A DNA stretch of 63,217 nt from Escherichia coli. GTDB lineage: Bacteria > Pseudomonadota > Gammaproteobacteria > Enterobacterales > Enterobacteriaceae. The DNA lies in assembly GCF_003334255.1 (NCBI RefSeq), contig NZ_QOWU01000026.1. One strand, given 5' to 3'. How positions within the stretch are numbered: position 1 is the first letter of the stretch; each line of letters begins with the position of its first letter. The notes beneath the pieces are model-generated. The model did not search any database. It was not told the DNA's origin and saw only the letters and a program-made list of their open reading frames with translations. Both the position numbers and the translations under genes were made by a program. This document shows positions 41,806-42,148 of the stretch, piece after piece.

Positions 41806-41969
41806 AGTGACGCCTCCGGTTGATGAGTTTTTCATTCACCACCGTCAGGTTCCTAATCATCGGGTGGCGAGACGTACAGGGTTAGGAACTACCGGATCAA
41901 CCAACCGGCCAGCCTTTCGGCTGCCCCATACGCCCCACCATAATTCAGATGTGCGTGTGCATACGACAA

Positions 41970-42050
41970 TAAAAAACACGCTCGCGGCGTGTGTCTGTCG
42001 CGGTTGAATATCCGGGGTTCCTAATCCCGACGCCAGATTTTGCTGGCGTG
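41970..42050 (-). ncRNA. candidate ~80-nt terminated leader/sRNA upstream of the ORF6N gene
   Basis: Minus-strand promoter TTGACA (42085-42080)-17 nt-TTATAT (42062-42057). Then hairpins GCCAG-caaaat-CTGGC and CGGG-AUUAGGAAC-CCCG, and the terminator ACACGC-cgcga-GCGTGT plus T6 (41992-41970). Confidence 0.45.
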
Positions 42051-42148
42051 CGGTGAATATAATCCCGGATACCTATTTTTGTCAAACAACCGTTGCGCAT
42101 TACACAACAGTCGCTATAATGATTCGCGTAACGCAACAGGAAACAAGC

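Follow-up and report, generated by a model that had tools for sequence, protein, structure and literature searches.

A P1 immI-type isrK/C4 RNA cassette probably controls an ORF6N antirepressor gene in an Escherichia coli prophage

We analyzed a 63,217-nucleotide (nt) stretch of Escherichia coli DNA (contig NZ_QOWU01000026.1 of assembly GCF_003334255.1), hereafter the window, for an RNA-coding region that precedes ant, the gene for an ORF6N-domain antirepressor. Positions 42049-41805 on the minus strand very probably form an RNA immunity cassette of the phage P1 immI type, orthologous to the isrK locus of the Salmonella prophage Gifsy-1 and controlling the antirepressor. All features below lie on the minus strand unless marked otherwise. 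The small RNA (sRNA) IsrK, equivalent to the c4-a1b1 motif, was matched by Rfam family RF01394 at 42049-41971 (79 nt) with a score of 68.9 bits (gathering threshold 50; E=1.2e-12), over the full length of the model (positions 1-77 of 77). The C4 antisense RNA was matched by RF01695 at 41945-41860, 25 nt downstream of isrK, with 67.5 bits (gathering threshold 45), again at full length (model positions 1-87 of 87). Family membership, anatomy and a three-way covariation of the recognition sites are established for this locus. A preliminary description of the window had proposed an RNA switch controlling the downstream antirepressor, and the matches to the isrK and C4 families agree with it. The architecture itself is already known from P1/P7 and from Salmonella Gifsy-1, and the cassette is thus real but ordinary.

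IsrK, C4 and the ant leader were linked by two sets of complementary sites, each set having one member in IsrK (a1, b1), one in C4 (a′, b′) and one in the leader (a2, b2). Site a1 (UUAGGAAC, 42024-42017) lay wholly within the 9-nt loop of the second IsrK hairpin. Site a′ (GUUCCUAA, 41889-41882), which pairs with both a1 and a2, occupied the single-stranded junction between hairpin P3 and the 3′ strand of stem P1 in C4, and a2 (UUAGGAAC, 41856-41849) stood in the ant leader, 6 nt past the predicted 3′ end of C4. For the second set, b1 (UCAACCG, 42007-42001) was found in a single-stranded linker of IsrK and was complementary to the P3 loop of C4. That 9-nt loop constituted b′ (UUGGUUGAU, 41904-41896), which pairs with b1 and with b2 (AUCAACCGG, 41824-41816). 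The last two bases of b2 were the first two of the Shine-Dalgarno (SD) sequence GGAGG of ant (41817-41813). The preliminary description had noticed an 8-mer presented three times, with one copy fully in a hairpin loop, and both observations proved exact. TTAGGAAC or its complement occurred exactly three times in the 63-kb window, all within 176 nt (42024-42017, 41889-41882 as the complement, and 41856-41849), and UUAGGAAC filled the loop of hairpin 2. The 11-mer GGTTCCTAATC was likewise repeated exactly at 41848-41858 and 42016-42026, as had been stated. A triplet had therefore been seen correctly, but the account was incomplete, as the second triplet, b1/b′/b2, had been missed. The raw count of three 8-mers was unremarkable and was reached in 21 of 100 shuffles; a chance repeat was ruled out by the clustering, the Rfam matches and the covariation, not by the count.

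Comparative evidence came from 19 loci, namely the window, 16 diverse phage loci, phage P1 and Gifsy-1. As observed, isrK was followed by C4 at a distance of 22-35 nt in all 16 phage loci and in Gifsy-1, and P1 had the equivalent c4-a1b1 plus C4; the covariance-model scores of C4 were 65-85 bits in all loci. An unbiased k-mer test on 18 loci searched for 6-mers of C4 whose reverse complement was shared by the upstream RNA and the leader. Matches were obtained only at C4 positions ~39-48 (b′) and ~56-61 (a′), the sole exception being one repeated match in P1. Tabulated over all 19 loci, the a site took 13 different forms and the b site 16, the three copies of each site matching within every locus, and b2 ended 9-19 nt before the start codon in every locus (19/19). 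The preliminary description had set covariation in related phages beforehand as a test of its proposal, and the 8-mers indeed co-varied across the homologous loci. Formal covariation was calculated from an 18-sequence alignment for the a1:a′ helix only, the gaps placed by MAFFT being inconsistent at a2, b1 and b2. In this helix, 93.7% of cells were paired compared to 69% in shuffles, and none of 500 shuffles reached the observed value. Compensatory changes were present in five of the seven pairs, and 32 cells were changed on both sides compared to nine expected, while controls in which the partners were slid showed only 18-42% pairing. Of the 18 aligned loci, only the window had an a site of 8 nt; the site measured 7 nt in the 17 others. 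All three copies (a1, a′ and a2) contained the additional base, which, from the sequences, looks like a coordinated three-way insertion.

Predicted duplex energies were -35.9 kcal/mol for C4-IsrK and -27.5 kcal/mol for C4-leader. Across loci, cognate duplexes were on average ~9-11 kcal/mol better than non-cognate ones, although the matrices of energy and helix length were noisy. The non-cognate values were inflated by conserved stem strands (CCGG/GGG), and we relied on the exact-match table and the a1:a′ covariation instead.

Next, the parts of the cassette are described in the order of transcription. A consensus scan called the isrK promoter (PisrK) at 42085-42056, with 11 of 12 matches: a −35 TTGACA at 42085-42080, an 18-nt spacer and a −10 TATATT at 42061-42056. 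The preliminary reading, TTGACA-17 nt-TTATAT, denotes this site with an offset of one base. The predicted transcription start is the A at 42049. In nearly all homologous loci, a TTGAC..TATAtT motif stood equally far upstream, and the corresponding promoter of P1, at the same upstream distance, is annotated as P1c4/P51b. The Gifsy-1 equivalent is PisrK, which has been used experimentally (PMC4825925). The minimum free energy (MFE) fold of IsrK gave hairpin 1 at 42049-42030 (GCCAG/CUGGC), hairpin 2 at 42029-42013 (CGGG-AUUAGGAAC-CCCG), the single-stranded linker and a terminator, so that a1 is exposed in a loop and b1 is single-stranded. A terminator scan placed the intrinsic terminator at 41992-41971, with the stem ACACGC/GCGUGU and loop CGCGA at 41992-41976 followed by U6. 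This is the layout of the family, two 5′ hairpins and then a Rho-independent terminator, and the RNA of about 80 nt with three hairpins, the last being the terminator, that had been proposed before was recovered as the 79-nt IsrK by the fold, the terminator scan and Rfam alike. The window IsrK was nearly identical to that of Gifsy-1 apart from the a1 and b1 sites. The terminator sequences were identical and the promoters nearly identical, and the Gifsy-1 terminator is partly read through in vivo (PMC4825925). Rfam also lists the c4-a1b1 motif under RF03163, a member of the clan to which C4 belongs, and this model overlapped the isrK matches in several loci, including Gifsy-1. A Q-antiterminated late-promoter RNA of the PR′/6S type was considered and ruled out, as the RNA lacks an adjacent Q gene and matches isrK.

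The mature C4 RNA is predicted to be 77 nt long (41939-41863, GGUGGGGCG...GCCACC), with ends that align with the annotated 77-nt C4 of P1. This 77-mer folded into the canonical shape at -43 kcal/mol (MFE; z=-4.07), in which a long P1 stem encloses the P2 hairpin (41923-41910, capped by a GAAA tetraloop), the P3 hairpin (41909-41891) and a 9-nt junction; a 3′ ACC tail follows. Both a′ and b′ were unpaired in this fold. Hence, GUUCCUAA, which had been read as plain mRNA leader, is instead the single-stranded a′ junction of a tRNA-like RNA. ARAGORN called no tRNA in the cassette region, although C4 is tRNA-like. The C4 RNA of P1 is excised from its transcript and acts in trans. Hartmann et al. 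are said to have reported in 1995 that it matures from a longer transcript to ~77 nt, with RNase P cutting the 5′ end. The end sequences in the window (5′ AUUAU|GGUGGGG and 3′ GCCACC) were the same as in P1 C4 and are compatible with such maturation.

The ant gene (41805-41128) encodes a 225-aa protein with an ORF6N domain (Pfam, E=1e-19), which was 62% identical to Gifsy-1 AnrP over 140 aa. Judged from its homologues, which begin with MTTQ, its true start is the ATG at 41805 and not the upstream in-frame ATG at 41835; the SD sequence GGAGG at 41817-41813 precedes ATG 41805. No icd-like open reading frame (ORF) was present between C4 and ant at this locus, and b2 directly abuts the ant SD. The Klebsiella phage KpLi5 (L010) showed the order isrK, C4 and an icd-like gene at 497-906, with the antirepressor gene further downstream and b2 on the ribosome-binding site (RBS) of the icd-like gene. 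The relatives therefore include both arrangements, with and without icd.

Taken together, we consider it likely that C4 blocks the translation of ant and that IsrK titrates C4. A sigma-70 promoter would fire at ~42049, and the majority of transcripts would end at the terminator to give the 79-nt IsrK. The remainder would read through and contain both C4 and the ant message, and from it the tRNA-like C4, ~77 nt by prediction, would be released. C4 would then contact the ant leader twice, through a′ GUUCCUAA with a2 UUAGGAAC and through b′ UUGGUUGAU with b2 AUCAACCGG. Because b2 overlaps the SD sequence, ant would stay untranslated and the prophage repressed. IsrK would act as a decoy, with a1 and b1 exposed and 30 nt of almost unbroken complementarity to the effector region of C4. 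On the strength of this complementarity and the more stable predicted duplex (-35.9 versus -27.5 kcal/mol for the leader), an excess of IsrK should titrate C4 and de-repress ant, so that Ant would be made and induction favoured. The specificity of the cassette would be encoded in the a and b sequences. In P1/P7, C4 has been shown to repress ant; for the window, we infer transcription, processing, the decoy role and the Ant target. The preliminary description left the choice between an attenuator and an sRNA switch. The second alternative agrees with the present data, while the position of b2 on the SD sequence speaks against the first, and in our analysis the primary control would be translational, by RBS occlusion, rather than attenuation.

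The order and spacing of elements closely matched those of P1/P7 immI (a1 b1 - c4 - a2 b2 - icd - ant1/2; Citron & Schuster 1990). C4 is 77 nt in P1, as predicted in the window; its ends are identical, the junction carries a′, the P3 loop carries b′, and a terminator-like hairpin follows b1 in both. In P1, a2 starts 3 nt after the 3′ end of C4 (c4 ends at locus position 520 and a2 starts at 524), compared to 6 nt in the window. Furthermore, b2 of P1 overlaps an RBS and ends 10 nt before the icd ATG, whereas b2 of the window lies on the SD of ant itself. Of the two, only P1 has icd, and an ORF6N protein serves as antirepressor in the window. The a and b sequences differed throughout, giving a different specificity, and P1 is a plasmid prophage, in contrast to the lambdoid prophage of the window. 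The satellite phage P4, by literature description, similarly has a processed small leader RNA (CI RNA) with complementary sites upstream and downstream (seqA/seqC). However, P4 CI leads to premature transcription termination, while the downstream site in the window overlaps the SD and points to translational control. As in the window cassette, the sar RNA of P22 immI is a small RNA that represses antirepressor translation in a lambdoid phage. Unlike the window RNAs, sar is a true cis-antisense RNA, encoded on the other strand opposite the ant RBS, with neither a decoy nor a tRNA-like processed RNA.

A close, experimentally characterized relative was the isrK-orf45(STnc1160)-anrP locus of Gifsy-1 (Hershko-Shalev 2016, PMC4825925), whose RNA region was 81.5% identical to the window over ~254 nt. 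In Gifsy-1 (L018), isrK at 34316-34240 and C4 at 34214-34131 (69 bits) were followed by a2, a conserved GGUGGUGA box, b2 and the anrP ATG, which is the same layout as in the window, and an ORF6N antirepressor of the AnrP type lies directly downstream in both. The codes differed, being UUGGCGU / AUCACCGG in Gifsy-1 and UUAGGAAC / AUCAACCGG in the window. Furthermore, orf45 has 45 codons and overlaps the anrP start in Gifsy-1, while the corresponding frame in the window has 14 codons; and antQ, encoding a Q-like antiterminator, is immediately upstream of isrK in Gifsy-1, where the window has higBA and a Bro-N gene. To map published mutations, we took the Rfam start as the first position of the Gifsy-1 transcript. 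By this mapping of our own, G28A and G31A fell into a1 (U26-U32), their partners C162U and C159U fell into a′ of C4, and the orf45 AUGs (107 and 119) fell into AUGGUGGGGCGUAUGG at the 5′ end of C4. Therefore, helix b-I of Hershko-Shalev et al. corresponds to the a1:a′ contact, and their orf45/STnc1160 region to the C4 RNA. IsrK supplied in trans raised anrP translation 139-fold and required the helix b-I (a1:a′) pairing (PMC4825925), which is exactly what an anti-antisense decoy model predicts. In the original P1 proposal, a1/b1 compete with a2/b2 for C4, and the c4-a1b1 motif was defined as two hairpins encompassing a1 with b1 just 3′ (Weinberg et al. 2010 supplement). The preliminary idea that two UUAGGAAC copies compete for one GUUCCUAA agrees with this P1 model and with the trans-activation of anrP. 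The IsrK paper itself likened the orf45/STnc1160 region to P4 CI RNA and never named C4 (PMC4825925).

Several points weigh against repression by C4 and titration by IsrK. For P1, the decoy role of a1b1 was a proposal only (Weinberg et al. 2010 supplement), and the Gifsy-1 authors invoked a cis structural switch with translational coupling through orf45 (PMC4825925). In their experiments, constitutive STnc1160/orf45 strengthened the toxicity of IsrK rather than weakening it (PMC4825925), and this stronger toxicity is unpredicted by a simple repressor/decoy model. The MFE fold of the full read-through RNA (255-nt leader) paired a1b1 with a′b′ in cis. Because of this predicted pairing, cis effects on the folding and maturation of C4 may matter as much as trans titration. 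Moreover, as the window lacks an icd-like ORF, the P1 route, in which icd is translated and Rho polarity on ant is affected, is not literally transferable. The same long-range cis pairing of the 255-nt leader fits the published Gifsy-1 model taken literally, for which genetics and native gels were provided in Gifsy-1 (PMC4825925). There, the read-through mRNA is silent (structure A, with the IsrK middle part paired in cis with the 3′ part of orf45), is opened by short IsrK in trans, and activates ant by orf45 translation and coupling, so that a separate antisense repressor would be unnecessary. We regard this model as improbable for the window. Its orf45 frame ran for only 14 codons, with a stop codon within the P3 loop of C4, >80 nt upstream of the ant ATG, and we ruled out a coding leader of the orf45 type for the window on this ground. 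Across the 19 loci, the frame ranged from 3 codons to open-ended. Since its length is not conserved, the translational coupling step cannot be general, nor can it apply in the window. Conservation is seen in the RNA structure, and in every locus b2 adjoins the SD of the gene that follows.

Two further explanations were weighed against repression by C4 and appear less probable still than the Gifsy-1 model. One is that of the preliminary description, a cis-acting leader switch or attenuator in which GUUCCUAA would pair with the downstream UUAGGAAC as an 8-bp stem of the leader; competition from the sRNA loop for this stem would then alter read-through or translation. In its favour, the two 8-mers show exact complementarity and belong to a single transcript. 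Nevertheless, GUUCCUAA sits in the junction of a stable and conserved three-way RNA that is excised in P1, the b triplet at the SD is ignored, and the a′:a2 stem was absent from the MFE fold of the full leader. An intermolecular contact of C4 with the mRNA is therefore better supported than this stem as the regulatory element, and we think it very doubtful that the cis switch operates. The other would make IsrK mainly an Hfq-dependent trans-acting sRNA on host mRNAs, its position upstream of ant being incidental. Rfam names the family ‘isrK Hfq binding RNA’, and other prophage sRNAs act on host targets. However, the variable parts of IsrK tracked the adjacent C4 and the leader rather than any host gene, and IsrK was constantly 22-35 nt upstream of C4, so that such a role is most improbable as the main one.

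A further cis element may bear on the precursor. The conserved GGUGGUGA box (41843-41836), between a2 and b2, showed complementarity to UCGCCACC (41870-41863), the 3′ strand of stem P1 in C4. In 18 loci, 97% of the cells of this pairing were paired and four of the eight pairs were compensatory, with such changes seen in P1, KpLi5 and others. When the full read-through leader was folded, the MFE structure contained the hairpin formed by the box. It would hold a2 in its loop and be incompatible with the C4 fold, and it may thus provide a conformational switch of the precursor.

The element is not new, because two Rfam models detect the cassette and sister phage records already annotate the isrK/C4 pair. 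These are the records of phages F039 and APSE-7, the latter marking even a′ and b′ (PMC7313666). According to a 2023 paper, the Rfam C4 and isrK profiles pick up relatives of the P4 CI and seqA immunity RNAs. One architecture is thus treated in three literatures under different names, as P1 c4/a1b1, as Salmonella IsrK/orf45/STnc1160 and as P4 CI/seqA, a link already partly drawn in Rfam (the c4-a1b1 family) and in PMC10111431. The exact allele of the window was rare, with matches of >=99% in seven E. coli complete-genome records, while related versions were present in 741 of 5426 genomes. The closest phage match was GER2 (99.6%). A distant BLAST search with the 291-nt region against phage records returned 322 records, mostly of Shiga toxin (Stx)-converting phages, and relatives of the cassette are thus found in many of these. 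By setting antirepressor synthesis, the cassette would determine lambdoid prophage induction independently of the classical RecA route. Its specificity code (a = UUAGGAAC, b = AUCAACC) should predict which co-resident phages cross-repress or cross-induce. The RefSeq/GenBank records of the locus carry protein annotations only, and recognizing both RNAs would correct the annotation. In public phage records, protein-coding genes are drawn across the isrK/C4 RNAs at L003 453-626, L006 498-620, L010 564-698, L009 264-1097, L012 241-1154 and L014 383-1045. They are labelled as hypothetical proteins, an ‘Icd-like’ protein or an over-long ‘antirepressor’ / ‘regulatory protein’, and are probably mis-annotations.

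A second cassette was observed at ~50870-50620, consisting of a TTGACA-18-TATATT promoter, a short terminated RNA, the sRNA-Xcc1 RNA (RF02221, 69.5 bits), a leader and a gene for an AntA-domain antirepressor. It resembled the isrK/C4 cassette in its layout, in its three-site logic and in a structured RNA ending in CCACCC. The C4 model did not match the sRNA-Xcc1 RNA even at E<=10, and the short upstream RNA matched no Rfam family. As shown by exact matching, the loop CUUGCUG and the 3′ junction GUGUUCA of sRNA-Xcc1 each had complements in the short terminated RNA upstream as well as in the leader, with the loop site abutting the SD. With L019-L023 and L024-L103 as the comparison loci, the sites co-varied in five Stx-phage loci with four codes. 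Among 17 representative AntA-type upstream regions from IMG/VR, three-way matches of exact 7-mers were found in 13; 11 of these were at an sRNA-Xcc1-type loop, with at least nine codes, and two were in loci carrying isrK/C4 instead. By these sequence relationships, sRNA-Xcc1 appears to behave like a C4-type immunity RNA. The searched literature treated it as a virulence- or integron-linked trans sRNA, and no paper linking it to C4-type immunity was found there. The two antirepressors, the ORF6N Ant (41805-41128) and the AntA-type Ant (50624-49989), had different N-terminal domains and nearly identical C-terminal ~90 residues, a pattern suggestive of domain swapping and possibly of a shared target.

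A wider reading of both cassettes is put forward tentatively, as possible but not as the probable one. The prophage DNA would hold two orthogonal RNA-immunity channels, each gating an antirepressor: isrK/C4 for the ORF6N Ant, and an unnamed decoy RNA with sRNA-Xcc1 for the AntA-type Ant. IsrK would be purely an anti-antisense sponge for C4, and Gifsy-1 orf45 would really be C4 RNA. If this is true, sRNA-Xcc1 in enterobacterial phages would be an antisense immunity RNA analogous to C4 with its own decoy, and the a/b codes would form a combinatorial address system deciding which co-resident prophages silence or induce each other.

Upstream of isrK in the window, the divergent genes higB/higA were followed by the Bro-N gene. 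The preliminary description had placed the isrK promoter back-to-back with a higBA promoter. A candidate, TTGCGC-16 nt-TATAAT at 42093-42120 on the plus strand, adjoins and diverges from the isrK promoter; it was plausible by eye and was not called by the consensus scan. HigB probably starts at an internal ATG at 42149, within the listed 124-aa ORF. Elsewhere in the window, Rfam detected the sok antitoxin RNA at 58719-58893 (118 bits) and STnc100 at 62696-62912 (149 bits), both on the plus strand. ARAGORN called a tRNA-Arg(CCU) at 37754-37828 on the minus strand, and Gifsy-1 likewise has a tRNA-Arg downstream of its isrK-anrP locus.

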